A DNA stretch of 40,035 nucleotides from Amoebophrya sp. A120 (lineage: Eukaryota; Protista; Dinoflagellata). The stretch is from NCBI GenBank assembly GCA_905178155.1, contig CAJINV010000025.1, forward strand, positions 406,612 to 446,646. Direction: 5' to 3'. Below the pieces are notes generated by a model. That model did no database searches, was not told the DNA's origin, and saw only the letters and a list, made by a program, of their open reading frames with translations. A program made the translations under genes and the position numbers. Every line of letters begins with the position of its first letter. Position 1 is the first letter of the stretch. Shown one piece after another: positions 830 to 40,035 of this stretch.

Positions 830-977
830 TGTCCGCCCGGTGGCGAGTGTCCGCCCGGTGGCGAGAGGTCCGCCCGGTGGCGAGGGGTCCGCCCGGTGGC
901 GAGAGGTCCGCCCGGTGGCGAGGGGTCCGCCCGGTGGCGAGGGGTCCGCCCCGTGGCGAGTGTCCGCCCGGCGGCGA
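830..977. repeat. GC-rich minisatellite, 17-19 bp unit GTCCGCCCGGTGGCGAG(T/AG/GG), ~8 copies
   Basis: Tandem copies directly visible; they explain the repetitive overlapping ORFs on both strands. Confidence 0.9.
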
Positions 978-1099
978 GCGGTCGGGACGGCCGGCCGGCG
1001 TGCGATGGGCGCGCGTGGCGCCCGCGCCCCCCCGGCCATCCTGATGAATGCATGAGGCGCACTCCCCTACGTACGGCCCAAGGAAGCGCCCCACTTCGG

Positions 1100-3660
1100 C
1101 CCGCCCCGTCGGGGAATCCTCGGTGGAGGGCCATCGCGACCGCATTCAATTTGGAACCCAGAGGCCCATTATCCTAGCCCCGCCGCAAGGGTCCGGCCTG
1201 CCTGCGACTGAAGAAACGACGCCCAAGAAAAAAGGCGAGCAGCCGGCCCGCCATTTCAAGTGGGAAAAACAGGGAGACCCTGCGGCCCATTAGCAGCAAG
1301 CCCCCCGCACGGCTCGCCGGGGTGTCTTCGGATGCATGTGGGAGCGAGGGCGTCACTGCAACGAACCCCGTTCAATTTTGGCCCCTGCGGTCCATCAAAG
1401 CGCCTCCCTCGTCTTGGCGTTCGGTTTCTTCGCGACTGAAGAAGTGGCGCCCGAGAAAAAAGGCGAAAAGTCGGAAGGGAGGCCATTTGAAAGAAGGTGA
1501 CGGGGGCCCTAAGGCCCCTGAAAAAGTCCCCTGTCGGGTCGTCGGGGCTTCCCGGGTTGGGGGTCATCGCAACCCCATCCGACTGCAGCCCCCTGTCTGG
1601 ATGTTTGGTCTGCGAGTTAAGAAACAAACGGGGCCCAGGAAAAAAGGCGAGCACCCAGGCAGCCATTTTGAACGGGGTTGGTAAGGGGACCCCTAAGGCC
1701 CACTAAAAAAGGACCTCTGAGGCCCACTAAAATAAAAAGTCCCCCCCTGGGTCGTCGGGGCTTCCCCTGTTGGGGATCATCGCAAGCGCAACCGATTTTG
1801 GCCCCTCGGGCCCACTAAAAAACGCCCTTTCTGGGTGTTCGGTTTGCGACTGCTGAAACGGGGGGGCCCAAGAATAAAGGCGAGCACCCGGCTAGCCACT
1901 TCAAACGGGGCAAATCAAGGGGACCCCGAAGGCCCATCAAAATGTCACCGGCTGGGCCATCGGGAATTGCTCGGCTGGGGGTCATCCCAACCCCAAACAA
2001 TTTCGACCCCTCGGGCCCACTAAGAAATCCGTCGTCTGGATGCTCCGTCGTCAACAATTCCAAGGGAAAAGACCAAAAATCCCAAAGGGGGGAAGGCGGG
2101 GGGAATACGGGAAGGGCTTTGCCATTCCAACTCCATGCGAGCGATTTCGGCCCCTCCCTCAGGCCCATTGAAAAGCCCCCCTTTCAGGGCCGCACGACTT
2201 TCGTCATTATTAGCGCCGGAACTGTAGCAGTCAGCTCGACGCCCCTCCCTCAGGTTGTTCCGAAGTAGGCGGGGGATGTTCCGAAGCAGAGAAAAAACCA
2301 AACAACCCCGACCCCAAAAGCCCCCGGCGCCCCCCCCCGCGGTTGTCTTTCGTTTCAGCATGGACGCGGAAAGGGCGCATGGCCTGGAAACCCCTCCGCT
2401 GCCTGGGTGTTCCTATTTTTTTGGCCAGCAAATCCATAAAAGAAAAAAGTCGAACAGCCGGCCAAGAAAAGGCGAACACGAAGCGCGGACAGACAAAAGC
2501 GAAAAGGCCGGCCAACCATCTCAAACGGGGTATGTAAGGGGATCCCCAAGGCCCACTAAAATAATAGCCCCGCTTTGGGTCGCCGGGCGAGGTTTCCTCG
2601 GACGATTGGGGGTCATCCCAATCTCAACCGATTTCGACCCTTAGGGCCCACTAAAAAATCCTCTTTCTGGATTTTCGGTTTGACTGTTGAAACGGGACCC
2701 AAGAAAAAAGGCAACCACCCGGCCAGCCATTTCAAAAGGGGAAAGGGGACCCCTTAGGCCTACTAAGCAGCCCCCTCTTGGGCCGCCGGGGTTTCCTCGG
2801 TTCGGGGTCATCGCAACCCCAATCGATTTCGACCCCTGAGGCCCACTAAAAAACCCCCTTTCTGGGTGTTCGGTTTGCGACTGCTGAAACGGGGCCGAAG
2901 AAAAATAAAAGACGAACACCCGGCCAGCCATTTTAAACGGGGTAAGGGGGCCCCGAAGGCCCACTAAAAAGTCCCCTGTTGGGTCGCCGGGGTTTCCTCG
3001 GTTCGGGGTCATCGCAACCCCAATCGGTTTCGACCCCTAAGACCCACTAAAAAACCCCCTTTCTGGGTGTTCGGTTTGCGACTGCTGAAACGGGACCCAA
3101 GAAAAAAGGCGAACACCCGGCCAGCCATTTTAAACGGGGTACGTAAGGGGGCCCCGAAGGCCCACTAAAAAGCCCCCTGTTGGGTCGTCGGGGTTTCCTC
3201 GGTTCGGGGTCATCGCAATCCCAATCGATTTCGACCCCTAAGGCCCACTAAAGAGCCCCCTTTCTGGGTGTTCGGTTTGCGACTGCTGAAACGGGACCCA
3301 AGAAAAACGGCGAACACCCGGCCAGCCATTTCAAACGGGGTAAGGGGCCCCTAAGGCCCACTAAAAAGTCCCCTTTTGGGTCGTCGGGGTTTCCTCGGTT
3401 CGGGGTCATCGCAACCCCAATCGATTTCGATCCCGAAGGCCCACTAAAAAATCCCCTTTCTGGGTGTTCCGTTTTCAATAATTCCGAGGAAAAGGGCCAG
3501 AAATCCCAAAGGGGGGGGGATAGCGGGAGGGAATGCGGGGGGGGTTGGGGGGGGGTTGCCATTCCAACCCCATGCGATTTCGACCCCTAAGGCCCTATAT
3601 AAAATCCCCTTTTCAACAGCAAAGAATTGTCATCATTATTAGAACTGTAATTTATCATTA
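1100..3660. repeat. Diverged ~200-bp tandem satellite organised as two larger blocks
   Basis: Motif GGGGTCATCGCAACCCC..GATTTCGACCCC..GGCCCACTAAAAA recurs (TCGCAA at 2811, 3012, 3213, 3409; spacing 196-201). Both blocks end in the same ~160-bp tail (2057-2213 and 3480-3640). Confidence 0.85.
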
Positions 3661-3687
3661 TAGCGCAATGAATGCAAAAGCAAACAT

Positions 3688-4029
3688 GGACGAAATTTAT
3701 CTTCCTCGTTATTTTGGCCCAAGCTACGCGGGGGGTGCGGGCAAGTACGTACTTATTCAAAAAGGCCGGCCCCCCTATGCGTGTAAGGCTTGGATCGGGA
3801 CACCTTGCAGCACGAAAGTCCTCCTAAAAAAAAAAGGCGCCGCCGCCGTATTATCTGAAAGAAAACGAAAACATGAAAGGCCGGGGCGCTGCGGAGAAGC
3901 CGCCGCAGGCACGCCTCTCACCAAGTCGGACGAAGTTTATCTTTCTCTTTTTTTCGGCCCAAGCTACGGTGGGGGCGCGGGTACCTACCAAACAGAACCG
4001 GCCCCGCCCTTACGCGTGTAAGGCTTGGG
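3688..4029. repeat. Imperfect ~105-bp direct repeat pair
   Basis: GGACGAA.TTTATCTT..GGCCCAAGCTACG..GCGTGTAAGGCTTGG at 3688-3793 and 3928-4029. Confidence 0.75.
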
Positions 4030-4381
4030 CCGTGCCACTTTTGTGGCGCGAATTTTTTGGAGCCGCCACCGCTACCGCCCCGCCTCCAGCTAGTAGGCAA
4101 AGGCGAAGGCCCATTTTTGTCCTCGAAAGCAAACTGCTTTCTGTGCCCAGGGCCGCAAGCACATAAATACCTCCGTAGTACGTCAAAAGCCTTAATATAG
4201 TTTTAGTTCTATCTGCTTCATCAAGCAGACTGCTTGGCCCAACAATTCTTCACATCTGTGAGACACATACTAACGATGTCTTTTTCAATCAGTATCAGAT
4301 TTTTCAGCTCAATTTTTCAGTGGGACAGAAACTCCGAATTCTGTACACAACAGCAGGCATTAATTATGCGTGATGTAGTTG

Positions 4382-4590
4382 TATCGCAAGAAAGAACTGT
4401 TTCACTGTAAACCTGTGACGCAGAGAACGAAACACCAAAGTGTTTGTCTTGCTACACCTGCAACGCAATGGCTTTTTAAGCGTGTTTTCCCTTGGGAAAC
4501 GCGCATGGCAAATTTTCTGTGTCATGTGTAAGAAACTTGTGATGCAGATCTTGCAAAACCATCACAGTGAAGCAGTTTTTTCGTGGGATA
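4382..4590. mobile_element. TIR element, family D
   Basis: TATCGCAAGAAAGAACTGTTTCACTGT...ACAGTGAAGCAGTTTTTTCGTGGGATA; flanks AGTTG/TGTTG. Confidence 0.8.
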
Positions 4591-4650
4591 TGTTGATATA
4601 ATTCGTCGTCCGAGTGCCGTCGCGTGGAAGACAGCCCCGCGCACTTCCTC

Positions 4651-4974
4651 TATCAAAGTGAAAAAAGCCCCCACCCCATATCGGAAACGGAAGATTCGCG
4701 AATTTGTGATGCTGTATTTGAGTACACAAATCGACGTGTATTGCTAGAAGGCCAAGAGACGAAGCTGCGGCCTAAATTGCAGGCAATCTGTCATGCTGTT
4801 TCCCACTTCCAGTTGCCTCCTGTCATCCTGGCGCTGCAAGGCTTTCCCACGTTAGGCAGCACTACAGTCCGGCGCATCTTTTGCCTTCTAGCATCACAAA
4901 GCTGATTTGTGGCCACAAATCTGCATCACAGATTTCCGTTTTGATATGGGGAGGGGGCATTTTTAATTGTAATA
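4651..4974. mobile_element. TIR element, family B
   Basis: TATCAAAGTGAAAAAAGCCCCCACCCCATATC...GATATGGGGAGGGGGCATTTTTAATTGTAATA; direct repeat TCCTC. Confidence 0.9.
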
Positions 4975-5719
4975 TCCTCGAATGCTATGCGATAGGTATC
5001 AACCTTGAAACACTATCATGTCCGCAGCGTCTTGCCAAGGTCTTCGCCTATGTGGCACATGTGCCACCAGACGACTCCAGCACCGACGCAGAGCTTTGAA
5101 CCCCTCGCGGGGCTTCCCGCCCGTGGGCACTACGAAATTTCGTATAACGCCGTACCTGGTGGCAGGCACGCAAAAGCATCTGTCAGAGGGCATGATGCGT
5201 GATGTGTGAGACTACATTCAGCTTGCCGCTGAAGCTGCTTCACATCTAAAGACCGTGGCGCAAGTATCGATCGAAATGACGCTCGCAGCGAGAACCGCAT
5301 TGGTGCAGACATCAGGAACAATAAGGAATTGATTTTGCCGGAGCTCACACAGACGCCCGCCCCCCTAGGGGACGCGTAGGCTCCTCCAGGCTCCGACGTT
5401 CACATGTTCTTGAGATGATCGCGCGGTCCTCTTGAAAGTAGACCCAGCAAATTCACAGAGGGGCGCTACACACTTTTGCTCGTCCGCCGAAAGCGTTTGG
5501 GGGCGGGATTGCTTTATTCCCGCTGTCACGTTAATAAGTATCTTCGGACGTTTTTTGTCGGTTTTCTTTGTAAAAAAATGACGCACGAAGTAGAAATATT
5601 TGTCGCTCGCGCCGCCGTGGAGGGGGCACAACGGCGCGGGATATTCTTCATAACTATAGAGCAGTAGAAATTTTAGAAACGGAGAGACCAAAGGAACATC
5701 GTGCGAAAGGCAGTGCGCT

Positions 5720-6195
5720 AACTAGAATAGGGAATCCACAACGCCCCAAGGATTTTGCCTCTGAGGTAGTACATCCGTCGCCAGATAGGGTCCTGGGGGT
5801 TTCAGGTAGAAAGACAGCCAGGCAGAATGAAATATGACCCCTCGGTAGACATAGATCCCGGGGGTGGGAGATAAATCCCCAGGGAGAAAGACCCCCAAGT
5901 AGATAGATTCACAGGAGGGCTCCCAGGGACGGAGACACACCCCCAGGGACATAGATTCTCAGTGAGATGCTTAGACTTAGAACCCCAGGGAGATAGGTGC
6001 CCAGGGATTTAGTTTTCTTCTAGGGAAATAGCCCCCCAGGTAGATTGATAACATAGACCCCAGGCACTGACTTAGGTAAACTCCAGTGAAGTAGGGCCCG
6101 AGGCTGGCAAGCAGCCCCCCAGGTATGGGAAGGCTTTCAGCGGTAGAGCCCAAGGTATGGGCAGGCGTGCAGGTAGGCCCCCAGGTATGGGCAGG
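5720..6195. repeat. Degenerate CCCCAGG/ATAGAT-rich minisatellite tract
   Basis: Many CCCC(A)AGG and ATAGAT words; three copies of CCC.AGGTATGGG.AGG at ~6116-6195. Confidence 0.55.
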
Positions 6196-7967
6196 AGCTG
6201 CGCCCCCTGCGCTCGGCTGGCTTTATTCTACCTGCCGGGCAGAACTGGCAGCGCCTTCTTCCGCTTTGCTAGCTTTCCCTTCCCACCCTCGGCCGGAAGC
6301 GCGGCTTTAGTTGGAAGGCAAAGGGGCCGAGAGCATGCCAGGAAGCTACATGACCCGGAGGCCGTGTTGGCTTTGTGCGCCCTCCCCTCAAATATGGAAT
6401 GATCTCTCAAGAGCGCCGCTGTGCCACATTCCCCCGAGCTGGCGGGCCCGGGTAGATGTGTTTTCCCGCGAAACCCCCCGGGTGCCTCCTGTTTCTTGCC
6501 TTCGTGTGGGCCTGCAGTCGTGCGCGTGGCCCCGCTTCTCGCCGGGCCAGGCTGGCCCCATTTACTGGGGTGGGGACGCACCGCGCCGCCTGCCAACAGC
6601 CACAAGGCTGCGCAAGGAGAGCACAGACAGCAGGCATGTGGGGACAGCCACTGGGCGCCAGACGCTTCGCAAGCGCGCCCGGGACAGCAACATGGCCGCG
6701 GTGAGTCTGGGGCCGGCACGCAGTCGGCGGCCCGTTGTCCCTCCGCTACCAAACACAGGCCAAGGGGCGGCGGGGGTGGTTAGCACGAGAGCCGCCGGCC
6801 AGCAGGGACCTAACTAAGATGGGCGCGCACATCGAGAATGCTACCTGGCTACTTCATTGGCCGGCATTCGGTGATGTTGAGCCGGAGCAACGAACGCAAA
6901 AGAGCAAAGCGCAGGGGCTGGAGTGTAACATCTGCACCTACTCCGCACGGTTCGGGCGCGGTATTTTGTAGCGTGCGTCTCCGTGCTTTAGGCGCCTGGT
7001 GCGCAGCTGTATTTTAGGCGCCGGCCGGAGAACAAAACCTCTAGGAATGGTCTCGAAGGTCTCGCCTTGCGTTGGCTCAACATGCAGTAAAAAGGCGGAA
7101 GGGCAACGCGTGGGGTTATATATTGCCGAACCCAGGCAAGGGCAACATTTGAACGCACTGAGAAAATGCCGCCCAGAATTTTTTCTGCGTGGGAATCTGC
7201 GCAGTTTTTTTCAGTAGGAGACCAAAAGCTCTAGAGGTCGACCTCTAGTGGTCGCCCTCTCCTTTTGGTCAACTTTGCTCAGCCGTTCGCCCGCGATAGG
7301 CGAAATTTTTTCTCGGACCTCTAGAGGCCGCTCCTCTCCTTTGCTATAGGTCTGGAGTATACTGTCGGGCGAAAAAATGACAAAAAAACCGAAAACGCCC
7401 GACCTCTAGAGCTCGCCCTCATGTTTTGGTCAGAATTGCTATAGCTTAAATCACTCCCAGCATCGTGATTGACCAATTTTCAAAGAGTCGCCGTTTTTGG
7501 GTTTGGTCTCGTTTTCGTCAGATTTTGGTCAAGTTTTGGTCAGAATCTTATCGGGATTTGGATTCTCATTCCTTTGGTGTCTCCTTTTTTCACAAGTTGC
7601 TACGAGTCTATAGTTCTTTAAAACTATGAAAGAGAGGACTATGAACAAGTTTGCTGCTAGAACTCGGTCCTCACCTCTCCATCCGGCGCCAAGTCGGCTC
7701 TCAGAACAAGATGGAGGCTAAACAAAAAGAACGCGCTCGGTTGCAAATATAGTACTCCTGCAGGAGCAGCTACAGGGTAGTAGTTCCTCCCTGCGTGACT
7801 TTCAACATCTAGGTGCGCCAGAAAGTCGATCTTCGGTCTCACATTCACTCTCATCTCTGTATAGTACTTACCAATATGCTCATGCTTTTTAGAAGAGGGT
7901 CACAAAATGTCCGCTTAGGTCCTCAGGGGACCTTCGACCCACCCAGCTGGGTGGGCCTTAGGTCCCC

Positions 7968-10314
7968 TGCCCTAAAAATTATTATAAGGCAACAAGGGGC
8001 CTAGACGTGACCGGGCGGGCCACGTCCGTCCGGTCGGCCGAACGGCACCTGACCGGGAGTCAGTAGGTCGTGGCCCTCGGAGGTGGTGGCCGCCGGGAAG
8101 CGCGCACCCGGGCAACTAAGAAAAAAAAGATCAGCACGAGCGTGGCACTTCACTGGAGCAGCGCCTCTCTTGCCCACGCTCCCCTCCGGACCCGGTCACG
8201 CAGCCGGGGGCCGTCAGCTAGCTCCTGGGAGTATTCCACGCGGGCGACCGGTCGCAAAGCGTTTAGGGTTTACCGCTATAATAGGCATGCATGCGGATTC
8301 AAATATATGTTTCCGATTTAGGGTCCAAGGGTTTTTGTATGGCCAATGTGGCGCAAGCGTCAATGCTCTGGTGGTGTCGGCCCACTGTTACAATACACGG
8401 CGCGACCCCCAGCGAATCACGACCGGAGCACACACACGGATACCGATACCAGCTAGCCGGGGCGCTCAACTAAAGAAAGAAGGTCATGACGAGTTCGGCC
8501 TTTCACGGAAAAAGGGACGACTCTTACCCCTGGTCTGCCCCCGGTGACGCGAGCTTTTAGCCTGTGCTCCCATCCAACAAATAAAAAACAGGTCATGCGT
8601 TCGGCCTCTCACGAAAAAAAGGCATGAATCCTCCCCCCGTGCTCCCGCCCCGGTCGCGAGGCCGCCGGCTGTCTTGCTCCGGCGGCTCTGCACATTGATC
8701 CAATGGGGCGGGGTTTTTTTTTAAAAGAAAGGAGCCCCCCTCTGTACATAGCTGCTACGGGTGCAGCGGCGCAAGGAAAGGCCAGCGCTGCTTAACCGAT
8801 GGCCGCAGCTGTTGCTGCATTCAGCGCCAAAATCGCCCCGAGGCAGGAATGCCCCCGGTCATGTGCCGTCCGGCCGGCCGGACGGACGGACGTGACTCAG
8901 GCGGTAGCACCCCGGGCGGATTTTCCTTCTAAAAATGGGCTAAAATTCCCGGTCTTTCAAAAAATTGCAAAGGTGCGCGCCTGGCCCCGTCCGCCCTCTG
9001 TTTCCTGTTGCCGCCTCCTTGTGTGGGCCCTGTTTCGATTCCGAAGCGCCAACAGGCCCCCGCCCCTGGTGTTTCGGCTTGGCGGTTCCCCCGGTTCCCT
9101 TTGTCTCTCTCACTCGCGCCGGGCGCGCAGAAATTTTAAAATTTAAAAATTCGCCCCGTTTTCGGGGAAAACAAATTTTGTTTGGCATTCCGGTTGTCGG
9201 CCGGTCGGGGTGTGTTGCATGCGCATGGTGGCCGTGCAAGGGGTTGTAGGGTTATGTCGCAGGTAGGACAGTTTCGGGGGAAGCGTCGCCACACCTTACT
9301 CGTGTTCCCCCCGAACACAAGTTAGGTGTGTTGCAGGAGTAGATGACGCTTTGTAGGAGACGGCGTTCGAGCCTGGTGTTGGAGATGATGTTCTATATGC
9401 ATGTCGAACATCATTTCCAAACATCACCTACATTCCGCTACGCCCGGCGGGAATGTTTCGCATGGTCCAGTTTTAGAAGATCGGAGCAATTCCCGTTTTC
9501 GGCTTCTAAAACTGGTCACATTCGGCTTCTAAAATCCCGGACGCGCGGCTTCTAAAATCACAAAACAGGCAAATCGTGCGGGATTTTGCGTGTTCAGTGA
9601 TTTTAGAAGATTTTTAGAAGCCGGACATGGTCCGGGATTTTCCCATCTCCGGCCTGGGAATTAGAAGAAAACTAGAAGATTTTTTAGAAGGTAAATTAGA
9701 AGTGCACTTTAGAAGGTTTTTTAGAAGCCATTTTAGAAGGTTTTTTAGAAGCCATTTTAGAAGGTATTTTAGAAGGTGTTTTAGAAGGTTTTTTAGAAGG
9801 TAGGCGGGGAAAGCAGTGTCGTGGTCATTCCAGAAGTGAAAACTAGAAGCCACCTCCGCAGGTGGCTTCTAAGATTTGCTTCTGAACTGGCTGCGAGCAA
9901 TATCCTGTTTTTGGAGTTTCCCCTGGAGGCGCGCTCGAGATTTTCCTCGAGTACAGCGCCGGCCTCGGAAGCTTCCGAAAGCAGGCCGCCCCGCTTGTGG
10001 TTGTTTGTCGTTTATCCTAGCCCGGGGTGATGGGGTGGTGGTCGTGTCGGTTTTGTGGCGATGGGTGTCCGAAGCCATTGCGGCACCAGGGTGATGGCAT
10101 CGGGCCTCCTTGCTGCGTTGCAGGTTGTCTGTCTTGCTCCGGGTGCGGGGCAAAGGTTGCGCTTTGGGCAGAAGATTCGGGAGCGGCAAAATTTGAAAAT
10201 CCCGGGAAAATTAGAAGCGTTTTAGAAGCGGGGGCCGCCCGGGTGTTTCCCGCCTGACGTGACGCCCCCGGTCACGTCTAGGCTCCTTGTTGCCCTGTTG
10301 TAAGTTTTGAAGCA
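7968..10314. mobile_element. ~2.35-kb non-coding element bounded by ~55-bp imperfect inverted repeats
   Basis: AGGCAACAAGGGGCCTAGACGTGACCGG (~7987-8014) is the reverse complement of CCGGTCACGTCTAGGCTCCTTGTTGCCC (~10268-10295), extending imperfectly outward. Internal CCGGTCA/TGACCGG words; no convincing ORF. Confidence 0.6.
9470..9880. repeat. TTTAGAAG / CTTCTAAA minisatellite (12-bp period in the core 9705-9800)
   Basis: Tandem TTTTAGAAG(G/C)nn units with inverted CTTCTAAAA copies upstream. Confidence 0.8.
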
Positions 10315-10572: not shown

Positions 10573-10989
10573 ATTTCAGTATAGCTCCGATGTCGGTCGT
10601 CCATGATGTGGCCTCGCAGGAGTATGCTTACTGGGCAAGAACAACCGTGCCGAAACTTACTGTTAAAAAGCTTGGGGACAACATCTACATCGGTGTGCTG
10701 TGGTGAGCTTCGGTTCAGTGTGCAACTAGTCGATATTATTTCAGTCGTCGTGCGCGCGGTCGTGCCATCTTATTTGATAAAATCTATCTATGAAAATAAG
10801 CTACATTGGAAAATAGTAGGCAAATTATAACTTCCAGGCCGCTGCTCCTCGCATGAAATGCAAATGTAGTTCTATATACCAACATTGTTTCTTGTTACAT
10901 CTTGAAGAACAACTAACTTACGTTTTCATCACCTGTACTTGAGTATTTAATTTATCTTTCCAAGAGTACAACTTCTATCTCGTGCTCGC

Positions 10990-13900
10990 ATGATCATGTT
11001 GCGCATCGGAGGACTCGCCGCGCTTTATTTTTTCAGCGGCCTCTCAACAACGTTTGCGCTCGGGATGAAGTTGTACGGCCAACGCATTTATCAAGTGCAA
11101 ATATGTCTGGGTCTGGAAGATTCTGCGACTTGTCATGCATGTCTGACATGACTCGAGAATCTGTGATGCGTGGGCACGAACCGGCTCTCCTATCTGTCAC
11201 GCAAAAACGCAGTTTCTCATGTGGAATACGCAACACGTACCCGCTCAAAAATTTGTCATGCTTGGCTGCGTATTGCAGTCCGGCTATCATCCAGTGTAGC
11301 ATTAAGTACAAGTTTCCAGACCCAGACATATTTGCAATTCATAGCATTAGCACCTTCAAGGAGCGTACTTTCCTGCAGCAGGAAGAACAAGAAGCACAAG
11401 GTCGGCTACACATGCTATTGCAAGGAAAAATCCCCCCTCCCCATTTTGAACGCGCATCCTGCTGAAAATTTGTGACGCAGATTTGTGACCACAGATCGCG
11501 TCTGTCTTGCAAGAAGGCACATTCAGGCCGTCCGCTCTTTTAGCAACGTTAAATAATAGAACGTTACTATGCAGGCGCTCTGTAGAAATGCTGTAAGCGT
11601 AAGGCCCACAGAGTGCGTAGCCGTCTACCATGCTAGGCGCCTACACCAAAAGACCCTCGCCTAGGCTGGCTTAGGATCTACTGCGTGCCGTCCTTTACTG
11701 CAATAGTACGCATCTGTTGACTTCTTGTGTACTCAAGTCCAGCATCAGAAATTTTGATTTGATATGGGGAGGGGGGATTATTTTTGGTTGTATTACAGGG
11801 ATCTCAACGGTGCTTGTGGATCTCAACGTTGAGACCTCACAGCTCAACGTTGAGAAATATATCTCAACGATCAGCAGTGGTTTAGGGTTTCGGGTTTAGG
11901 ATTTGGGGTTTAGGGTCGTCGGGCAGGGCAGCCGCGGCTGCCCTGCCCGACGATTCTCTCGTCGCCTCCCTGCGCTCTTGTTGCCCGGTACGTTGTGCGC
12001 GGCCCGTTGCCTTGTGTGCCCTGTGTCCCACTATGCGTGGAGCCTTCGCGCGTTTTTCTGAGTATCTATGAGCCCGCTCGCTGGCAGGACCTCTGAGAGG
12101 TTTGCTGCGGGGGCTTGGTGCGCACCTTCACGCCATGCAGTTCTTCTGTGTGCAGACCGTTGAGACCAGTCGTTGAGCTCATCGCGAATCCGTTGAGGCG
12201 TCTCAAAGCGTTGAGGCGCGACCGTTGAGATTCACTCGTTGAGATTCCTGTATAACAACCATTATTTTTCCTTTCGATGCATGCACGAACAGCATCACGA
12301 GTTTCTTGCTGATCCTTCTACTCCTTCTTGCCCAGACCAAGCACCGAGAGTGTTCGTGTATGGCTTTCCGCCCAAGGAGTTACTGAGTCATATGGTGTTC
12401 TCAAACGTTCCGTTCTCAGCTTCTGTTACATGATTTGTCATGCAAAATGACCATGAGCCGCCAAACGATCAAGCTGCTTCGCAAGACAAATTATCGCCGG
12501 GCTAAACAGCATCTAAATTATCCGTGCCAAATTTGTGATGCAAGACTTGCAAGCTTGCCCCTTTCCCTATTGCTGTTTTTGCATCACAAATTCGTGTAAC
12601 AGTTGAGGATGTAACATTTGAGAACTCCATAAGTCACGGGACACGTGACATCGTTTGGCGGGAGGATGCGTACTGCGAAAGAGAATTACCGTCTGGCTCG
12701 GCCGAGGAGCGCGATTGCGTCTTCGGTCCGGAGTTCTCCGTTACGATCGATTCGCCGCCAGCCAACGTGACGCTCCGTGCCACTGACCAGTTTCGAAATG
12801 GCCGCATCTTCCAATCCCGCCTGGTGCGCTCAGCTTGCAGAGTCACAGATCCCACACGCGCCGATGTGTTTTTCGTGCCCATTTGGCGCGAGAATTACAA
12901 AGTGAACCGCACCGAGTGCCCGACGGAAGACGAAGTTTTGGCTGCTCTTCCCTACTTGTCCGACGAAACGGCGAGCAAGCACTTTCTGATGTCTCCGCGT
13001 GTCGGGGGATTGTGGGATGACGTGTGCCCTTTTTGGAATAGCGAGAAGCCGCTGCTCCAGAAAATCCGAAAGATGGCCCTGGAAGACACAGCCTGCGGCA
13101 AGGAGGACCGGCCGGAGCGTTCTATTCCGTATCCGACCCTCGGTGGCGGTTTGAACAGTACGCAACTCGCCCACCTGTTCGCCGTCGCCGATAAAGCGCA
13201 GGAGACCGGCAGGGAATTTCTAGTCATGGCCACTCTGGGGAAACGCGTTGGCATATCAAAAGGAAAAATCCCCCCTCCCCACATCAAAACGAGATTTCTG
13301 ATGCTGGATTTGAGTGCACAAATCAGGTTTGTATTGCAGGAAAGCATTGCAGTCAGATCCCCAGGCTAGGCAGGGGCGTATGCGTCTAGTTGTTCAGCAT
13401 GGCAAGCGGCTCCCCTTTAGGCCCAATAGCATGACAAATCGCTTCCATAGTGTGGCGGAAGCTTCTGCCGTTGTCTTCTTGCAATACAAATGTGATTTGC
13501 GACCTCAAATCAGCAACGCAAATTTTCGAAAACATACCTTTTCGATATGGGGAGGGGGGATTTTTGCTTTTGATATGGCATCTCCTCTGCGCGCGTGCGC
13601 GACGTTTGGAATCAACACTGCCACGACAGCGACCATTGTATTGCGGTGGACCCCACGGTATCAAATGTAAAAATGTCTGGGTCTGGAAGATTCCGAGATT
13701 TGTCATGCAGTTTTTCCAAGCTCCACAAAGTCTGGAATGCAGGGCCTAGCATCACAGGTTCTGCAGCCCCTTGGTGATGCCCATTATGCATGAGAAATGC
13801 CCTCTGAGGATGCCGAGAAATGGGGACCTTTTGCAATTCATGCGAACACAGATTTTTGTATCATCCGCAACACGCATCACAAGTTCGCATTCTTCCAGAC

Positions 13901-15108
13901 CCAGACATTTTTACATTTGATACACGGTGGCAGGCATGCTCCCTGGGTTGGTCCAAGCCATGATGAAGTCCACCTTTTGCTTGCAGCCGGAAGGAGACAC
14001 TCCGTCTCGCAAGGGGATGCTGGACAGCTTGGCGCTGGGATGCATTCCGGTGCTTTCGTCCCGGAAACAGCACACGCTGTGGCGTTGGCATCTGGGAGAC
14101 CACGACTGGGAAGATTTCTCTGTGCTGGCGCCAGATTCCACGCAGGCGGCACACTCAACCACTAGGGGCAATAAACCCACCCAGCCGGGGCAAAACCACC
14201 CAGATACAACCCCGGGGCAAAACGACCACCCAGCCGACGATATCAAATGTAAAAATGTCTAGGTCTGGAAGAATGCAACTTGTGATGCTGCGTCTGCATT
14301 ATCCGAAAATCTGTATTGCATGAACAGCAGAAGAGGTCTGGTTTTGGCCACGGCGAGAGGGCATTTCTCATGCGGTATAGGCATCAGAAAGCCCTGCTCA
14401 CAAGACCTGTGATGCTAGGGCATGCATCGCAGACATCAGTCATGCAAAATGTGCATGACAAACCTTGCATCCTTGCAGACCCAGACATTTTTGCAGTTGA
14501 TAGGCGAGGACGGGGGGCAAAACCACCCAGCCGAAGAGGACGGAAGGCAAGACGAGCAAGACCAATCAACTGTCGGCAAGGGGCCAACATCGCAACGTTC
14601 GTTATCAAATGTAAAAATGTCTGGGTCTGGAAGATTGCCAGGTTTGTCATGCACATTTTGCATGACTCCTGATGTCTGTGATGCATGCCCTAGCATCACA
14701 GATTTTGTGAGGGCTTCCTGATGCCTATACCGCATGACAAATGCTCTTTCCGTGTAGCAAAACTTGGACTCTCTTTGCTGCTCACGCAATACAGATTTTT
14801 TTAGAATCCAAAAGCAGCATGACAAGTTGGATTCTTCCAGACCCAGACATTTTTACATTTGATGTTCGTGGTGCTGTGGCGATGGCGAGAAGAAATCCCC
14901 TCCAGCGGTGGCGCAGACGCTGATGGAAACTGGATCGTCCGGCGTCAACAACATCGTAGAGTTCCTGGAGACCATCAACGCGACCACGATCGCCGAACTG
15001 CGGGCCGGCGTGCGGAGTGCGCGGGAGAAAATCATCACGCACTGGACCGACACCGACTTGAACGACGCAATTACGGTCACGCTGAAAGCCATACAGGATG
15101 GCAAATGA
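10990..15108 (+). CDS. Exostosin-family (GT47) glycosyltransferase with N-terminal signal peptide/anchor, ~537 aa, split by 7 TIR elements. Exons 10990-11088, 11349-11415, 12285-12390, 12637-13253, 13581-13658, 13928-14240, 14508-14602, 14870-15108
   Basis: Joined exons total 1614 nt with no internal stop. They read MIMLRIGGLAALYFFSGLSTTFALG..RVFVYGFPP..TDQF..CRVTDPTRADVFFVP..SIPYP..STFCLQPEGDTPSRKGMLDSLALGCIPV..WEDFSV..NDAITVTL, which are GT47 motifs in the expected order. Confidence 0.92.
11089..11343. mobile_element. Family A TIR element acting as intron
   Basis: TATCAAGTGCAAATATGTCTGGGTCTGGAA...TTCCAGACCCAGACATATTTGCAATTCATA; repeat GCATT. Confidence 0.93.
11416..12279. mobile_element. 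Family B TIR element acting as intron; right TIR split by a nested element
   Basis: TATTGCAAGGAAAAATCCCCCCTCCCCAT...ATGGGGAGGGGGGATTATTTTT[insert]CCTTTCGATG; repeat CATGC. Confidence 0.9.
11786..12260. mobile_element. Nested non-autonomous element with 9-bp TSD (Mutator-like)
   Basis: TSD ATTATTTTT (11777-11785, 12261-12269). TIR GGTTGTATTACAGGGATCTCAACG / CGTTGAGATTCCTGTATAACAACC. Subterminal TCTCAACG/CGTTGAG repeats. Confidence 0.88.
12391..12631. mobile_element. Family E TIR element acting as intron
   Basis: TATGGTGTTCTCAAACGTT...AACATTTGAGAACTCCATA; repeat AGTCA. Confidence 0.9.
13254..13575. mobile_element. Family B TIR element acting as intron
   Basis: TATCAAAAGGAAAAATCCCCCCTCCCCACATC...GATATGGGGAGGGGGGATTTTTGCTTTTGATA; repeat TGGCA. 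Confidence 0.95.
13659..13922. mobile_element. Family A TIR element acting as intron
   Basis: Perfect TIR TATCAAATGTAAAAATGTCTGGGTCTGGAAGA; repeat CACGG. Confidence 0.96.
14241..14502. mobile_element. Family A TIR element acting as intron
   Basis: Family A TIRs; flanks GACGA/GGCGA. Confidence 0.92.
14603..14864. mobile_element. Family A TIR element acting as intron (interior opposite to 14241-14502)
   Basis: Family A TIRs; repeat TTCGT. Confidence 0.93.
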
Positions 15109-15149
15109 AGACGAAGAGGAGAAAATGTTTTAAATGAAAAACACGGCTA

Positions 15150-15406
15150 TATCAAATGCAACTATGTCTGGGTCTGGAAAGAAAGTTGGAACTTGTAATG
15201 CTAGCTTTACATTCCTGGAATATCTGTATTGCATAACCGACAAAAGGAGATTTTTGTCATGCAAAAACGCAGTTTCTCATGACATGCGGGCTGCCTATGA
15301 GAAAGTGCTCCGAAAAGTTGTCATGCTGCTCTGCATTCGGAACTGTTTCCATCATGCACATTTTAGCATCACAAGTTTCCAGACCCAGACATATTTGCAT
15401 TTGATA
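15150..15406. mobile_element. Family A TIR element downstream of the stop codon
   Basis: Family A TIRs; CGGCT on both sides, with one extra A on the left. Confidence 0.88.
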
Positions 15407-15444
15407 CGGCTTTACTGTCTACTACAACCCGTACGCCAGCGGCT

Positions 15445-15777
15445 TATGCTGAGGAAAAATCTCCCCTCCCCATATTGAAAGCGCATCCATCTGAAAACTT
15501 GTGATGCAGATTTGTGACCACAAGTGATCGCGTCTGTCTTGCAAGACGGCAACTTCAGGCTGTCCGGCACGTTATCCAGGCGATTTGTAATGGTGTAGGG
15601 CCTACAGGGCAGCCGTCTACCATCGACTAGGCGCCTATACCAAAAGGCCCCTGCCTAGGCTTGCGATCTGCGTGCAGTGCTCTACTGCAACACAAGTTTG
15701 ATTTGTCTTTGTGTACTCAAATACAGCATCACAAATATCGTTCTCGATATTGGGAGGGGTGATTTTTCCTTTTGATA
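15445..15777. mobile_element. Family B TIR element
   Basis: TATGCTGAGGAAAAATCTCCCCTCCCCATAT...ATATTGGGAGGGGTGATTTTTCCTTTTGATA; repeat CGGCT. Confidence 0.88.
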
Positions 15778-16389
15778 CGGCTCATCTACATCATCCTTGC
15801 GTTGCTGAGGACCTTAAGGCGTTGGATATCTATCACTGTCTGTTGGTTTTACTTATTATCATTGACGTATTTTGAAAAAATTGCTTGTAACAACAAAACT
15901 TCTTCGCTCTACCAGTTCTGTTTTTCTCAAGAAAGAGCACAAAGTGGCTCAGTCTTCTATCTGGTATTTTTATTCATCTTGAAATAGCGCTAGAATGGTC
16001 AGCACACGAGAGAAGAAAACCTTCACCCGGATCATTCCGTGTATCCAATATGAACAAACAACCAAACAGCTTTTCATTTGCATTTTCTTCTATTGATCAT
16101 CATGGTTCGAATTCAATTTTGTATGGTCTTGACCGACCAGCATGTAGTTTTTGCTTTATTAATAATTCGGAACTACTAGCCTGGTCGTCGTTGGGGTCGC
16201 GACCACATTCTACTTTCACTAATTGTAATTTTTGTACTAGTTTCGGTTTATCTTCATTCCGACCGCATGATAGAAGTACACATAAACAAAATGCAAACCT
16301 GTCTATGGAAGCGTCAGGATTGAAATCGTCAAAGTTGAATTTGAAAAAAAAAAAATGCATAAAATGCAACCCACAAAGCGCCTGTCTTG

Positions 16390-16988
16390 CAGAGTAGGCA
16401 AGGGAGGCATATTGCAAGCCTGTTGAGGGGTAGAAATAGAGCTGCTGAAGTAGCATGACAAAAGGCGTCTTCCTTTTACCCAAACAGCATTACAAACTGG
16501 ACTTAGACACCACCAAAACTTGTCATGCGCCATTTCTAAACTGGGCTCCAACTGGCATCCATTTTATGCATGACGAACTATTTCAACTCTGACAAATTTC
16601 AAACCTGACACATCCATATTGTCTGGCTCTGAAAATAAGAAGTTGTGAAAAATTCGTAGAACAGCAAGATGGTTTCTGCTACACGGAGTGAGAGGCATTT
16701 GTCATGCGGATTAGGCATAAGGAACTACAAGCATACCTAATTCATAGAGTGTGACAGACCACGACGACATCAAACTGACCGCTACCAGAAATAAAAGTAG
16801 CCAGTGGCATGATGAGAAATTCATTTTGCAGGGCGTCCATTTTTAGCCTCTACGAAAACAAGATGTGAATGAATACGCATACGCACGAAACTCGGCAAGC
16901 ATTTCCTGCATGACAGAGGTTGTCTGTCTTGCTTGTCTTTCATCAGAGCGTGTACTTCTAAGTGTAACACTTCTTATTTCTCACGATA
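16390..16988. mobile_element. Cluster of eroded A-, B- and D-like element remnants
   Basis: TGTCTGGCTCTGAAA (~16620), A-like interior GGCATTTGTCATGCGGATTAGGCAT, and D-like end GTAACACTTCTTATTTCTCACGATA (16988); no matched pairs. Confidence 0.5.
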
Positions 16989-17815
16989 AAAAAGGTCTCG
17001 ACGTGGTCCACAAATAAGATCATCGTCTGGCTTCTACTCTACCTCCCGCTGCTGTTGTTCAAACAAAGAACTTGCGCCGTTTTATTTCGAAGCTTCACGT
17101 TGTCCACCCGTGTAAGACTTCTCAGAGTAAGTCGAAGTACTCATAATTGCAGCTTTATTCCAGCAAGAGAAACAAGATCTTGAAAAAATGCGTCGATCTT
17201 CTTGTGGCCGCTTTTTTTCCTTTTCTTTACGTTCAGCGAGCAGGTTCGTCATCTTTCAAGGTTTAGTTTTAAATCGAGCACTATACCATAGGGTAGTTTT
17301 TATCGGCCAGCGTTATAATTTCAGATTCGGAAAAATGTACGTGTCTAGCGCGCACATAAGAACTTACTTTTGATCCTAGTATATAAAATTCCTGCCGTGA
17401 AGATCCACACGCCTACTGATGAGAGAAGCTCCTGCTGGCTGCGCTTGCCACAGGAAATTATGACCTTTTGCGGCTTGTGCTCGCAACTAGTAGACCACCT
17501 CCGAGAATAAATACAACTTATCTATCAAGATAGATCAACATGATCTATCGGTAAAAATAAAACTACAATCAGCCTACTTCTTGCAACTAGCTGCGCGGCC
17601 GGCGCTTGCTTTTTGGTAGCGGCAGCCTTATTTTTCTGGCATAGAAGGAGAACAACTCGCACTCGCTAGAAGTGACGATCGAGGACCACCTAGTGCCGAG
17701 AATATTCAATAGCACGTGATGTTGTCGGACGGGAAGTGGAACGTATGTGAACAGCAGAGGCCTCTATCTCAAAAAGTACTAGTACTACCTTGATTTATTG
17801 TCCAGAGAAAAAAAA

Positions 17816-20800
17816 ATGGCCGCCGCCAAAGCGAATGCGAACATGGCCCGACTACACAAGCACAGCGCGACTCTTCTCGGGGACCGCCTGTACGCAGCGG
17901 TGCGGATATGAAATGTAAAAATGTCTGGGTCTGGAAGAATGCAACATTTGTGATGCAGGTTTTCCATGACCCATGAGGCCGCGCATGCAGGACCTAGCAT
18001 GACAGATTCTGCGCGATCTCTCTCATGCCTTTCCTGCATGAGAAACTCCCTCCCGACTTGGTCAAAACTGGACGACTTTTGGTAATCATGCAACACAGAT
18101 TTTTGCATGCTTCAGATTTAGCATGACAAGTTGCATTCTTCCAGACCCAGACATTTTTACTATTGATAGCGGAGTGGCGACGGCAAATCCACGACATGCT
18201 CCTCCTCCTTACCTATGAACTGCAAAAGTGTCCTGCTGCTCGTATAAATGCATGACAAATCCCCTCAGCATGAGAAATAAAATTTGTAATGCGGATTTAC
18301 ATTGGGAAAAAAATTTGTAATGCACGACTGCAATACGAGTACTGTCACTGTGCGATACTTTTGCACAGGATATTACCCCGCCGATTTTTCAAGAAGCTGA
18401 AAAGCGGGACGAAACAGCTTTTCCTAAATTCTCGGTCACCGGCTGCGGCAGCGCGAGTAGGCGCGATATCTCCTCCCGACAGCGACGATCGGTTGCCACC
18501 GACACTGTACCGGGTGAAGAATATTGCATTTTCCGAGAAGCCGGGGAAAACCAGCAGGGAGGCGAGTGCGGCCGTGGGTAAAAATAGAGAGCAGGGTCCA
18601 GGAGCAAATTCCTATACCACCGATAGCACACCCACAGGTGATCCTTCCCCGCTATCGACTGTAAAAATGTCTGGGTCTGGAAGGGCCAAACTTGTGCTGC
18701 TGTATTTGGATGCTAAAAAAACCTGTATTGCATGACCAGCAAGAGGATTCAAATTTGGCTACGCGGAGACGGCATTTGTCTTTGTCATGCTGGATGCGCA
18801 TAGATAAGCGCTCAAAAAATCTGTGATGCTATGGCATACATCACAGACATCATGACTCATGAAAAATGTGCATGATAAAGTTGTGCTGTTCCAGACCCAG
18901 ACATTTTTGCATTTGATACCCGCCCGACGGAGCCAACATTTGTTCGGCACCGGTACTATTTTCCATCCCTGTCTACGGGCGGAACAAAAACACGCTGCTT
19001 CCGAGCACGCCCGTCGCGGTAGGAAATTGCAAATCTCTCTGAGTCTGGAAGAATGCAGAAGTTAGTCATACTGCTTTTGCATGACCGAGGACGGCTTGTA
19101 TGCAGGAGCAGGCGGCAAAATTTTTTTGTTTTCTCGACAGGGCATCTCATTAGCATTCCTGCATGAGAAATTCCCGTATTTGGGTGACAAAAGGTCGTCG
19201 TCGTGGATGAGAGATTTTTGTCTGTGCAACTGCTTTAGCTGGCCAGGCATGACAGATTTTTGTGATGTCTCTTAAAATGCGCGTCTTCACAAGTTTGAGT
19301 ATTCGCGCTTCAGACCTCCCAGATGACAGATTTGCAATGCATCGGCGTTCCTGAAACCCAACCAGGTGGTGCAGGTGTTGCCGCACGCGCTAAGGATCTG
19401 TGATGAGGAGCTAACGGAGGACAATTTGAGGAACTACAACTCGGGCATCGCCGGTTTGGAAAATGCAAAGTGGAAGCAGTTTTGGCTGGACACGCACCGA
19501 GGAGCAGGAGCCGCAGCCGCTTCCTCCTCTCCGTCCAGCTCGTCCTCTGTGGCGCCTGTAAATGTAATGAAGGACCACGGGGGCCAGCAAATGAGTTGTG
19601 AACAAGGAGGGAAAAAAAACCTCCCTGTGCAGACAGGCCACGAACCCGAAGTGGTAGAAGCAAGGACGAGCGAAACATCGTCAAGACGGGAAGGTGCAGA
19701 AACGCTTTCTCACCCCGCCCTCACTCCACCGTCTCCGTGGATCCCGGTTCGCATCGCGCCGGACGCCATGGAGGTGCTTACCATGCCGAACACGGTCGGC
19801 GGCATGACACTATCACGAGGAAAAACTCCCCCTCCCCATAATCTTCAAACGGAAAGTTTTCAGTACTGCTCTGTGGCGAGAGATCAGCTTTGTCCACGCA
19901 AGAAGGCAAGCAAAGATAAAGATAAAGTAATTTGCTCGCTTGCTTTTCTTGAGCGTACAGGGCAGGCGCAGCCTTACGGCGACGGACAAGCGCGGCGCGG
20001 ACGCGCCGCCGCTTCGCAGTGATCGAGAGGCGGCGAGGCCGGTGCGCTTCGATGGTCGTGCGTGCATTCCTGCAATCTTCGTCGCGGGGCAAAATTTTAC
20101 CCGTGCAGGCCGGCATTTTGCTGGCGGTTTTTTTGCCCGCGCTTTTTTGCCGTCGTGATGTTTTTAGCGAGGCTAATCTGGCGACCCTGCTTTCGCTGTG
20201 CCTTAGTAGCAAACCTACTTGAGGAGCCTACTCGCAGGGCCGTGGGAGCGAACCCACCCGAGCGCTCCACTTGCAGCGCCTTCAGAGCGAACCCGGCCGA
20301 GCAAGCCAAAAACGCAACAACAACGCAACAACAACTCCACAACAACTCCACAACAACTCCACAACAACTCGACAGCAACTCGACAGCAACTCGACAACAA
20401 CGCAACAACAACTCGACAACAACGCAACAACTACGCAACAACTACGCAACAACAACGCAACAACAACGCAACAACAACGCAACAACAACGCAACAACAAC
20501 GCAACAACAACGCAACAACAACCCAACAACAACCCAACAACATACAACTCAGCCCGTAGCCAAAAAAAAAGCCTGGCAAGGGCGGGAAAGCGTGCGCGCT
20601 CTCCTTTTTTTATCCACCCAAAAAAGTAAAAGGAGAGATATTCCGGGCGGTCCAACAAAAGCAGAGATATTCGGGGCGGTCCGGCAGAAGTGGAGACATT
20701 CGGAGCGGTCAAGCAGAAGGAGAGATATTCGGGGTGGTCAGGCGAAAGCGGAGATATTCGGAGCGGTCAGGCAAAAGTAGAGATATTCGCAGCGGCCGAA

Positions 20801-26800: not shown

Positions 26801-29800
26801 ACGTCGACGGGATGATCAAAGCGGAGCACTTTTTTCCTGCAGGGGTAGAATTCAATCAGGAGGGGCTTCCACTTCGTGGGGCGGCACCCTCCGCGCATGT
26901 CGTCTTCGAGCCCGCCGCCCTGCAGTATCAAGTGCAAATATGTCTGGGTCTGGAAGAGTGTAGACTTGTCACGCAGATTTTCCATGACCCACAATGTCTG
27001 GAATGCGGGACCTAGCATGACAGACTCTGCGAGGTCTCTGTCATGCCTATCCTCCATGAGAAACTCCCTCCCAAGTTGGTCGAAAGTGGACTGCTTTGGG
27101 CTCTCATGCAACACAGATCTTTGCATGATTCACATTTAGAAGCATGATAAGTTGCAATCTTCCAGACCCAGACATATTTGCAATCCATATGCAGATGAGC
27201 GACGCGATCTACGCCCGGCTGCCCTTCACGTATCAAATGTAAAAACGTCTGGGTCTGGAAACTTGTGATGCTGGGTGGCGTATCATGAGGAGGCCACAAG
27301 AGCTGGCCAAGCATGACAAGTTTTTGAGCTCCTAGGTGTTGCCTATTCCGCATGACAAACTGCGTTTCTGCATGACAGAAAAATGAGGCTCTTGGGTAAC
27401 ATGCATGACAGATTTAAGAGTCATGCCAGACAAGCATGACGAACACACATTCTTCCAGACCCAGACATTTATTTTTACATTTGATATCACGCCCATGCAC
27501 GCCATCTACCAGACCGTGCTTGACTTTGTCGAGCGTAAGTTCTTCCCCGCACAAAGAAGTCAGGAACCACCCGCGTCGGCCCCCGGCGGCGGTAGTGCAA
27601 TTGTAACAGGAAGCACTACAACTGCTACTACTGCAGCTAGTACCCCCGCCGCGAGTACGAGAACTGCCACGACCCCGCCGCCCGTCTGGTCAGAGAAGCT
27701 CCGCAGAAAAGACAGCAGAGCGGCTGGCGTAGACGCTACCGGCTCCGAGCACCAGAGCCAGATGACTTATGATCTTCTACATGAAAGTCTCACGGAAGCG
27801 CAGCGGTCCTGGCTTTCCTTCCGAGTGTGGTTTGACGACATGGCGGCGGAATACTACGACGGCGTGATTGCGTATGGAAAGAAAAAAATTCGTCGCAGTC
27901 CCTAATACTATAATCTTGCAACCTGTGCATGACAGGAGATTCACCTGGCGTTACAGCTTTTTCTATGTATCATTCCGCAAACACAAGGGGAGTCGCGTAT
28001 GAAGTCTAGTCTTGCCTTGTGATGCTGCATTTCTACCCATGATGAGAGACAGCTTCGTGTTAGAAGAATCCGTATGAGTCGTGATCCTGATCGTGACAAA
28101 TTTTGTTTCGTGCATATTGCGGGGCCGGGCCGGTCGCGTGGTAGTCCTGGTCAAACGCAGTACATTCTGCAGCGCGCGCCCGGAAATGTGCCCGAGCGAA
28201 TGGAGATTACTGAGGAGCTATCAAATGTAAAAATGTCTGGGTCTGGAAGAATCCGAAATTTCTTATGCTGTTTTTGCATGACACAGAATGTCTGTCATGG
28301 AAGCCCTAGCATCACAGATCTTGCCTTCCTGATACCTATTCCGCATGACAAATGCCCTCCACGCGTAGCACAAACCGGACTCCTTTTGCTGGTCATGCAC
28401 TACAGAATTTTTTAGAGTCCAAAGTTAGCATCACAAGTTCCAACCTTCCAGACCCACACATTTTTGCAATCCATAGGAGCAGATTGTTTTTGACCAGGAC
28501 AGAAAGCAGCGGCACAAATTCTTCGGAAGGATCGGTCTCTTTTTCACGTTTTATCAAATGCAAAGATGTCTGGGTCTGGAAGAATGCAACTTGTGATGCT
28601 GCGTTTCGATTCCAAAAAAATCTGTATTGCATGAGCAGAAAAGGAAATGCAATTTTTGCTACGCGGAGCGGGCATTTGTCAGGCGGAATAGGCACCGAGA
28701 AGCCCTCAAAAAATCTGTGATGCTGGGGCACGCATCGCAGACGTCATGGCTCATGCAAAACGTGCGTGACAAGTCTTAGAACCTTCCAGACCCAGACACT
28801 TTTGCACTTGATACTTTCTGCTACTCGACAGTGGCCTACTTGCGGAATCGGCGGAGCCGAAACATGGCCGTGCGGGACTGCGTACGGCAAGAAAGGGCAA
28901 AAATGCAGGACGAAGAGGATCAACATCTTGTAGCGGACAGAAGACGCGACCGCACGGAGTGGAACGACAAAAACGGCGAAACACTCACAAAAGCGGATCG
29001 TGGCAATGACCCAGAAGCAGTAGAGCGTATCCCTCGCAAACATAATCGATCTGGATCTGAGAGATTGTAGATGGATTCTAATTCTTGCAGAAGTTTCTAA
29101 ATGCAGCTTTTCAGTGCGCCATGAAACGGTCGCTCAACTTGAGGACCGCTAGTGGGCAAGACCTTGTTTATTTCCACTCATGATCACGCAGCACGGAAGA
29201 TTTTTGTGTCCTGACGCTGCAAGGGGAATGTCACAGGACTGGATGAACATCTTTCAGACAGCCCGGGAAGTACTAGATGTTTGCAATGCATAGAACAAGA
29301 GGTCTATGGAGAGAAAAAAGTTTGTCACAGTCACTAAGTTGCAGGTTTTGCATTGCAAATTTTTTTTGCATCACAACTTCTTCTTGTATTGCAGAAACAC
29401 TAGGGAAATCCCTTATGAAGTGTGGCTGTGATGCATTTTTACGCATGACAGACAATTTTGTCTTGCAAAAATGCCCATGGGTGATCGTGGCGAACTTTTT
29501 TCTTTTCATAAGGTCCTGCACTTCGACCAGTTTCCAGCTCTTCTCCGGCCCCCGGTGGAAGCGGATCCATTTTACCTGAGCGAGATATGAATTGCAAAAG
29601 TGTCTGGGTCTGGAAGAATGGCAGACTTGTCATGCAGGTTTTCCATGACCCATCAGGTCTGGTATGTAGGACATAGCATGACAGATTCAGATTCTGTGAG
29701 AGCTCTATCATGCCTATCCTGCATGAGAAACTGCCTCGCGATTAGGTCAAAAGTGGACAGCTTGTGGTAATCATGCAACACAGGTGTCTTTTTACATGAT

Positions 29801-39788: not shown

Positions 39789-40035
39789 ACAAGTCTTAGA
39801 ACCGTCCAGACCGAGACACTTTTGCACTTGATGCGTTTTGCTACTCGACAGTGGCCTACTTGCGGAATCGGCGGAACCGAAACGTGGCCGTGCAGGACTG
39901 CATACGGCAAGAAAGGGCAAAAATGCAGGACGAAGAGGATCAACATCTTGTAGCGGACAGAAGACGCGACCGCACGGAGTGGAACGACAAAAACGGCGAA
40001 ACACTCACAAAAGCGGATCGTGGCAATGACCCAGA
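39789..40035 (+). repeat. Near-identical duplicate of 28769-29015 (right TIR of a family A element plus following exon), running off the window
   Basis: Same sequence at an offset of 11020 bp with a few substitutions. Confidence 0.93.

Follow-up and report, generated by a model that had tools for sequence, protein, structure and literature searches.

Inverted-repeat elements of one family, inserted in opposite orientations in the same gene of Amoebophrya sp. A120, are skipped exactly and alike in contigs of probable RNA runs, and the evidence favours their being taken out of RNA rather than out of DNA. The elements, which lie in a 40,035-nt stretch of genomic DNA (hereafter the window), match the introners that have been published for Amoebophrya A120 (Farhat 2021), a system that the preliminary description of this stretch did not recognise. 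Our comparison of junctions tentatively places the cuts 1 nt before the initial TAT and 4 nt after the final ATA of the element (the 1+4 register). The orientation independence of the A120 elements and the tentative cut register are new here, neither having been found in the literature searched.

The element inventory comes from a scan of the window for pairs of inverted ends flanked by direct repeats and was finished by eye. All 32 curated elements start with TAT, 30 of the 32 end with ATA and two with ATG, and the target duplication is 5 nt long and of free sequence. The MITE traits, including terminal inverted repeats, target duplication, short length and high copy number, are all present. 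In the accessible text of Farhat 2021 (PMC7789003), A120 introners are described as having an inverted repeat composed of TAT, seven variable nucleotides and at least three A, with direct repeats of 3–5 nt, and the non-canonical A120 introns are described as ~240 nt long with a hairpin; the mechanism is left open there, and the border position is called unknown. The elements in the window have TAT, seven variable nucleotides and at least three A at their ends, a direct repeat within the 3–5 nt range and repeated families, and they share with the introners described in that text the TAT-N7-AAA repeat, the direct repeats, the non-canonical sites, the hairpin and an A120-identical host protein. 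The same text reports no cognate transposase in A120, and LTR-like frames are attributed to one A120 inverted-repeat family in the accessible part of Gozashti 2025. A search of a viral sequence collection gave no exact match to the element repeat.

Several other features of the window were recorded alongside the inventory. Positions 600-10300 are GC-rich, non-coding and nearly introner-free, with just the elements at 4382 and 4651; besides a 201-nt tandem array at 1700-3550, they contain arrays of short repeats. The segment from 19811 to ~26783 is probably a giant family B-like element with a degenerate right end, which contains an 11-nt array and a 6-kb 29-nt array and may split one gene. The segment 32702-34812 is probably a 2.1-kb element with a 162-nt tandem array and the duplication AGCTG/AGCTA, whose removal would fuse the flanking frames into one gene. 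A near-identical coding segment is duplicated at 28814-29016 and 39834-40035, the second copy following a decayed family A end.

The adjacent family A copies at exactly 14241-14502 and 14603-14864 are 262 nt each and are flanked by the target duplications GACGA/GGCGA (mismatched at position 2) and TTCGT/TTCGT, respectively; the latter copy ends with ATG instead of ATA. The preliminary description had called the interiors of these two copies reverse-complementary, and the alignment bears this out: with 45 nt trimmed from each end, they match as reverse complements at 143 of 172 positions (score 237); compared on the same strand, they match at 96 of 172 (score 69), and the best of 200 shuffles scores 49. 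The stretch quoted in that description agrees at 22 of 23 positions. Within the window, seven family A copies lie one way (13659-13922, 14603-14864, 17907-18168, 26926-27189, 28219-28475, 29586-29857 and 36563-36830) and four lie the other way (14241-14502, 18653-18918, 28552-28813, with a duplication mismatched at positions 2 and 5, and 32381-32647); from 17907 onward these copies are identified by ends and duplication, supplemented by open frames for 17907 and 26926. Families A′, B and C likewise occur in both orientations. Specifically, family A′ is found at 11089-11343 and, reversed, at 27231-27486 (ends and duplication), while family C is found at 18214-18372 (ends and duplication, open frames) and, in the opposite orientation, at 31803-31952 (sequence comparison) and at 35202-36239, a copy with a nested insertion (ends and duplication). 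The inversions claimed earlier within family B (11416 versus 13254) and family C (18214 versus 31803) are both confirmed by sequence comparison, and the family B copy at 15445 is also inverted relative to 13254.

The orientation of elements relative to genes was also tallied among metagenome sequences, as the preliminary description had proposed. An exact 32-nt repeat pattern identified at least 132 metagenome loci, which are short and hold 173 distinct elements; 160 of them have enough flank for a strand call by a codon model, 113 calls are confident, and 60 elements were dropped. Among the matches listed, strand calls are concordant in 24 of 25 loci with multiple calls, and the reference orientation of family A runs with the predicted gene strand in 26 copies and against it in 31 (p = 0.6). 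Family A′ is skewed 16 to 5 among the matches listed, with pattern selection as a confounder.

The elements with the most direct evidence of removal lie in or just beyond gene 1 (10990-15108, + strand), which has eight exons and encodes a 537-aa Exostosin/GT47-family glycosyltransferase. Deletion of each element plus one duplication from 10990-15108 creates a single 537-aa frame on the + strand, and retention of any one of the seven elements truncates it. Two of the exons match Exostosin_GT47 (Pfam PF03016), and the 537-aa protein is identical to a database protein labelled Amoebophrya sp. A120. The earlier statement that the elements lie in + strand genes throughout holds for this gene, which contains the family A copies at 13659, 14241 and 14603 and the family B copies at 11416 and 13254; for the family C genes, the + strand is suggested by open frames, and minus-strand frames of 128-188 aa are present too. 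A homology search with one exon of gene 2, which holds the element at 18214, returned weak low-complexity matches alone and no clear relative, and no Pfam family matched this exon.

Four sequencing runs were compared with positions 10900-20250, and joints were taken from 15 of 816 joint rows. Two of the runs, X3 and X6, consist of contigs rather than reads, and their RNA nature is guessed, not recorded. The element plus 5 nt is skipped exactly at at least 8 of the 13 intact elements of 10900-20250 (11416, 12391, 13659, 14241, 14603, 15150, 15445 and 16304), with X3 and X6 sharing six of the joints and X3 alone providing the other two. In particular, the reverse family A copy at 14241 is skipped by a joint 14237 → 14505 (267 nt, X3 and X6), which retains the base of the left duplication copy, and the forward copy at 14603 is skipped by a joint of 267 nt (X3 and X6); the two joints have equal depth, 584.8. 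The forward copy at 13659 is skipped by a joint of 269 nt, and removal irrespective of orientation, as first proposed, is shown for family A by 14241 in reverse and by 14603 and 13659 forward. For family B, the evidence is indirect: joints skip the copies at 11416-12279 (869 nt) and 15445-15777 (338 nt, X3), and removal of the opposite copy at 13254-13575 is supported by the reading frame and by an X6 contig piece that ends at 13248 and continues with 38 further letters. The reading frame and an X3 contig piece that ends at 11083, just before the duplication, give similarly indirect support for the family A′ element at 11089, while joints of 246 nt and 320 nt, the latter in X3 and X6, skip the family D element at 12391-12631 and the family F element at 16304-16618, respectively.

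The elements at 15150, 15445 and 16304 lie in what appears to be a 1.8-kb 3′ UTR of gene 1, past its stop codon, and their removal is as complete as that of elements within coding sequence. A second inverted-repeat element with a telomere-like TTTAGGG run (about 11785-12260) is nested in the 3′ inverted repeat of the 11416 copy, of which ~16 terminal bases remain beside the end; despite this nested insertion, all 869 nt are still removed. A relic at 16620-16990, made up of family A and family E pieces and having no intact ends, stays in RNA contigs. The three elements of gene 2 (17907, 18214 and 18653) have almost no exon coverage, the RNA comparison ends at 20250, and X10, an RNA run with the same species label, contributes 24 partial reads alone.

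In programmed DNA elimination of the ciliate IES type, the element is absent from the transcribed DNA. The preliminary description had allowed for excision at the DNA level, in which a transposase-like activity would cut the elements from the template and the joined DNA would be transcribed; from the geometry, symmetric staggered cuts at the same offsets would restore the site too. However, contigs of the DNA-like run X1 cross element boundaries at a single-copy depth of 26-34, rare excised forms being possible beside them, and none of the 8 joints is present in X1 among the joint rows listed, where the X1 counts are incomplete and contigs drop rare forms. Furthermore, an exact 434-nt piece of the 11416 element is present in X3 at depth 62, versus ~450 for the spliced form, and the intergenic segment 17140-17763 has depth 0 in X3. 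The element-spanning X1 contigs and the presence of element interior in a probable RNA run together favour removal from RNA, and DNA-level excision appears very improbable.

The register of the cuts is hidden wherever the duplications are perfect, as they are in 107 of 125 core-defined family A copies among the matches listed. Twenty mismatched duplications were examined, nine of which give an identical protein in every register; the mismatch site of L059 was left out, its homolog not aligning there. At the family A′ element 15150-15406, one extra base stands between TAT and the left duplication; the joint from 15148 to 15411 skips 262 nt with no sliding. This joint is compatible solely with the 1+4 register, and it differs from a clean 263-nt microhomology deletion, a further point against excision at the DNA level. 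The register at this element comes from one X3 contig joint, flagged 'between: not known'. The duplication mismatches at 14241 and 16304 (the latter at position 1) agree with the 1+4 register. At one site of locus L066, registers 0, 1-2 and 3-5 predict Glu, Asp and Tyr, respectively, and the A120 ortholog has Asp, so that one or two bases of the duplication must lie 5′ of the element; at a second L066 site, registers 0-1 predict Arg and the ortholog has Lys, which leans to 2 or more, Lys/Arg being a conservative change at a variable position. In the accessible part of Farhat 2021 (PMC7789003), all nine of the commonest A120 non-canonical pairs in Table S4 begin with NT and all nine A25 pairs begin with TT, although these pairs may reflect aligner preference. 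In the 1+4 register, every intron would start with N-T-A-T, like a donor without its G. Apparent duplications of 8 nt, not 5, at L030:1029-1308 and L010:34-343 are anecdotal; 8 nt (5+3) is the only nearby duplication length that would keep the frame if the element plus 5 nt were always removed.

The lack of canonical GT-AG signals on both strands is upheld by the larger sample: among the matches listed, 97 of 113 copies, versus 101 of 113 in the antisense control, have neither a GT/GC/GA-AG nor an AT-AC pair in any register of the six. Within the window, a canonical-like pair in any of six registers is absent from 29 of 32 copies, and duplication composition is flat in the 113 confident copies among the matches listed. 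No acceptor signal is evident, and a common branch consensus is doubtful. YTRAY occurs in the subterminal 3′ region of 2 of 42 and 0 of 36 copies among the matches listed, and the TTGATA end resembles a branch consensus in 55 of 78 A-type copies among the same matches, but removed copies end with CCATA as well as with TGATA, and both ATG-ending elements are removed. The GT or GC donor and AG acceptor of a canonical U2 intron are thus missing from most copies. The joints could still belong to ordinary spliceosomal introns with cryptic GT-AG sets on both strands, or to an intronless retro-copy, since a GT-AG pair is available by chance in 6 of 113 copies among the matches listed and a divergent second copy of gene 1 is present in the sequencing runs. 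However, no sliding gives any of the 8 joints a GT-AG or GC-AG pair, the divergent copy has differences of its own, and no DNA joint is found among the rows listed; this explanation is largely refuted, and we give it almost no credence.

Across families, only positions 1-3 (TAT) and 11-13 (A-run) are constant among the matches listed, in agreement with the earlier assignment of the signal to the element ends. The conservation of TAT and AAA is not assignable to splicing alone, because a transposase would need the same ends. The paired internal motifs, which had been put forward as a second removal signal, do not hold up in that role: TGTvATGC is not sufficient, as the relic at 16620-16990 has the motifs yet is retained, and it is missing from the removed element at 11416. 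TGTvATGC and its complement number 87 copies in 9.5 kb of elements versus 12 in the other 30.5 kb, and the motif, which points inward near both ends and is common to unrelated families, is a candidate transposase-binding site.

The copies at 14241 and 14603 fold into long terminal stems (hairpin z of -8.98 and -9.27), and such strong stems are expected because inverted repeats must fold so. A non-spliceosomal route would use them directly: an endonuclease would read the closed stem through its TAT/ATA and AAA/TTT pairs and make two staggered cuts outside it, and a ligase would join the exons. Such a route would fit the strong hairpins in both orientations, the lack of a donor G and an acceptor AG, the apparent lack of a branch consensus, and the accessible text of Farhat 2021, in which U1 is undetected in A120 (PMC7789003). 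In the Euglena system, as presented in the sources consulted, the spacers that separate a paired triplet from the cuts are fixed at 3 and 5-6 nt. RNase III-like or tRNA-type routes have been proposed in print. On the other hand, G-U pairs do not exceed A-C pairs in the sense-strand stem (99 to 108 at 28 positions of 141 elements among the matches listed, p = 0.58), even though stem position 1 is an exception, with 5 G-U to 0 A-C among the same matches. Pairing is often missing at stem positions 4-7, the predicted probability of the three terminal pairs is ~0.15 in the element at 15445, which is removed, and the favoured register reproduces the U at +2 and the A at +3 of a donor. We regard the nuclease-ligase route as a serious contender, somewhat short of an even chance. 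Of the structure-guided removal suggested in the preliminary description, the part that locates the signal in the ends stands, whereas a generic structure-only rule is unsupported by the G-U and A-C counts. In the window and the matches listed, alterations of the first triplet affect 1 of 95 free arms at the gene-5′ end versus 8 of 111 at the gene-3′ end. This post hoc comparison gives p = 0.04, but 0.13 when the metagenome loci are taken by themselves and 0.07 when the strand cut-off is tightened; the polarity is weak and hints at a reaction that cares most for the 5′ UAU.

We consider RNA-level, end-guided removal as such to be highly probable, and we give about even credence to the more specific proposal that an adapted spliceosome removes the elements at the RNA level, cutting at fixed distances from ends that are alike both ways. 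An element would insert as a non-autonomous DNA transposon into nearly any 5-mer, either way round, the anatomy showing the insertion and the transposase being a presumed component, and it would then be transcribed, a step with support from the contigs. A predicted hairpin would join the 5′ end, UAU-N7-AAA, with the 3′ end, UUU-N7-AUA. Cuts 1 nt upstream of UAU and 4 nt past AUA would then release the element plus 5 nt and restore the original site with any duplication sequence; the length derives from 8 junctions, and the register from one RNA junction and one ortholog residue. The intron would start with N-U-A-U, and pairing would take the place of U1 and of the AG acceptor.

The preliminary description had taken orientation independence to point away from the spliceosome, which does not have to follow: spliceosomal introners of Polarella work both ways and those of Aureococcus are reported to do so. 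Orientation independence is no argument against a spliceosome, because an inverted repeat gives the same letters at each end either way. According to the accessible text of Farhat 2021 (PMC7789003), spliceosomal proteins and U2, U4, U5 and U6 are found in A120, whereas U1 is not, and ~35% of A120 introns are GT-AG; the retained spliceosome proves nothing, because those introns are GT-AG. A tentative generalisation, which we consider possible but distinctly short of probable, is a ruler-type code in which TAT-N7-AAA...TTT-N7-ATA would be cut 1 nt before and 4 nt after, in either orientation, with no exon or junction sequence needed and with cargo up to kilobases, by a U1-free spliceosome or a nuclease-ligase matched to the 5-nt stagger of the transposase, leaving scarless mRNA.

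The removal of two thirds of A120 introns with neither GT-AG nor a detected U1 is a problem that was posed in 2021. Removal both ways confines the signal to the last ~15 bases at each end, and at mismatched or displaced duplications, existing RNA reads can expose where the cuts truly fall, a position left undefined in the original paper. Should the 1+4 rule be true, it would account for the low cost of transposon insertion at nearly any site, and it would be a convergent parallel to the Euglena spacer code with a sharp lariat-versus-circle test. An open mechanism thereby becomes directly testable.

The literature searched, with subscription journals, theses and the images of Farhat Figures S19-S25 outside its scope, holds no statement on element orientation or cut register for A120. 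In the accessible text of Farhat 2021 (PMC7789003), all four main-text uses of 'orientation' and the Figure S7 passages refer to gene orientation, and the accessible parts of Gozashti 2022, Gozashti 2025, a Mobile DNA review and the Karlodinium-parasite genome paper contain nothing on orientation or register. Relative to the accessible account of the A120 introners, both-way removal and the 1+4 register are added here.

Among introners of other lineages, several spliceosomal classes of Polarella glacialis make introns either way, and Aureococcus is cited likewise, in the accessible text of 10.1101/2020.10.14.339549. These share with the A120 elements the inverted repeats, the target duplication and intron formation in either orientation, and they use several registers. 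However, their GH...AG sites come from duplication plus element and need particular targets, whereas the A120 target is of free sequence and sites of that kind are lacking; recruitment of splice dinucleotides from duplication and element finds no counterpart in the flat duplication composition among the matches listed. The A120 elements stand apart from the Polarella and Aureococcus introners because they have no GT-AG. Fritillaria has transposon-derived non-GT-AG introns, presumably removed by an adapted U2 spliceosome (accessible part of PMC11282704; see also PMC13326754); their end dinucleotides are fixed as AG-AC and AG-AT (PMC11282704), whereas those of the A120 elements come from the free duplication.

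The nonconventional introns of euglenids, the closest analogue of the A120 elements, are excised as circles and are suspected to be non-spliceosomal (Nomura et al. 2025, PMC12501133; PMC11282704), a point against the spliceosomal proposal, and non-spliceosomal removal has been proposed for euglenid and hemistasiid diplonemid introns (PMC12621601). As described in the accessible parts of these sources, euglenid and diplonemid introns have in common with the A120 elements the lack of GT-AG, paired ends and a MITE-like origin. Euglenids are an unrelated lineage in which the circular product has been shown, and the euglenid preference for a purine at the start of the next exon has no equivalent here (62 of 113 among the matches listed). 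A short paired motif, CAG/CTG in euglenids (PMC12501133) and TAT/ATA here, lies in the euglenids at unequal fixed distances from the cuts, 3 and 5-6 nt according to the accessible text, and may do so in A120, where the distances would be 1 and 4 nt.
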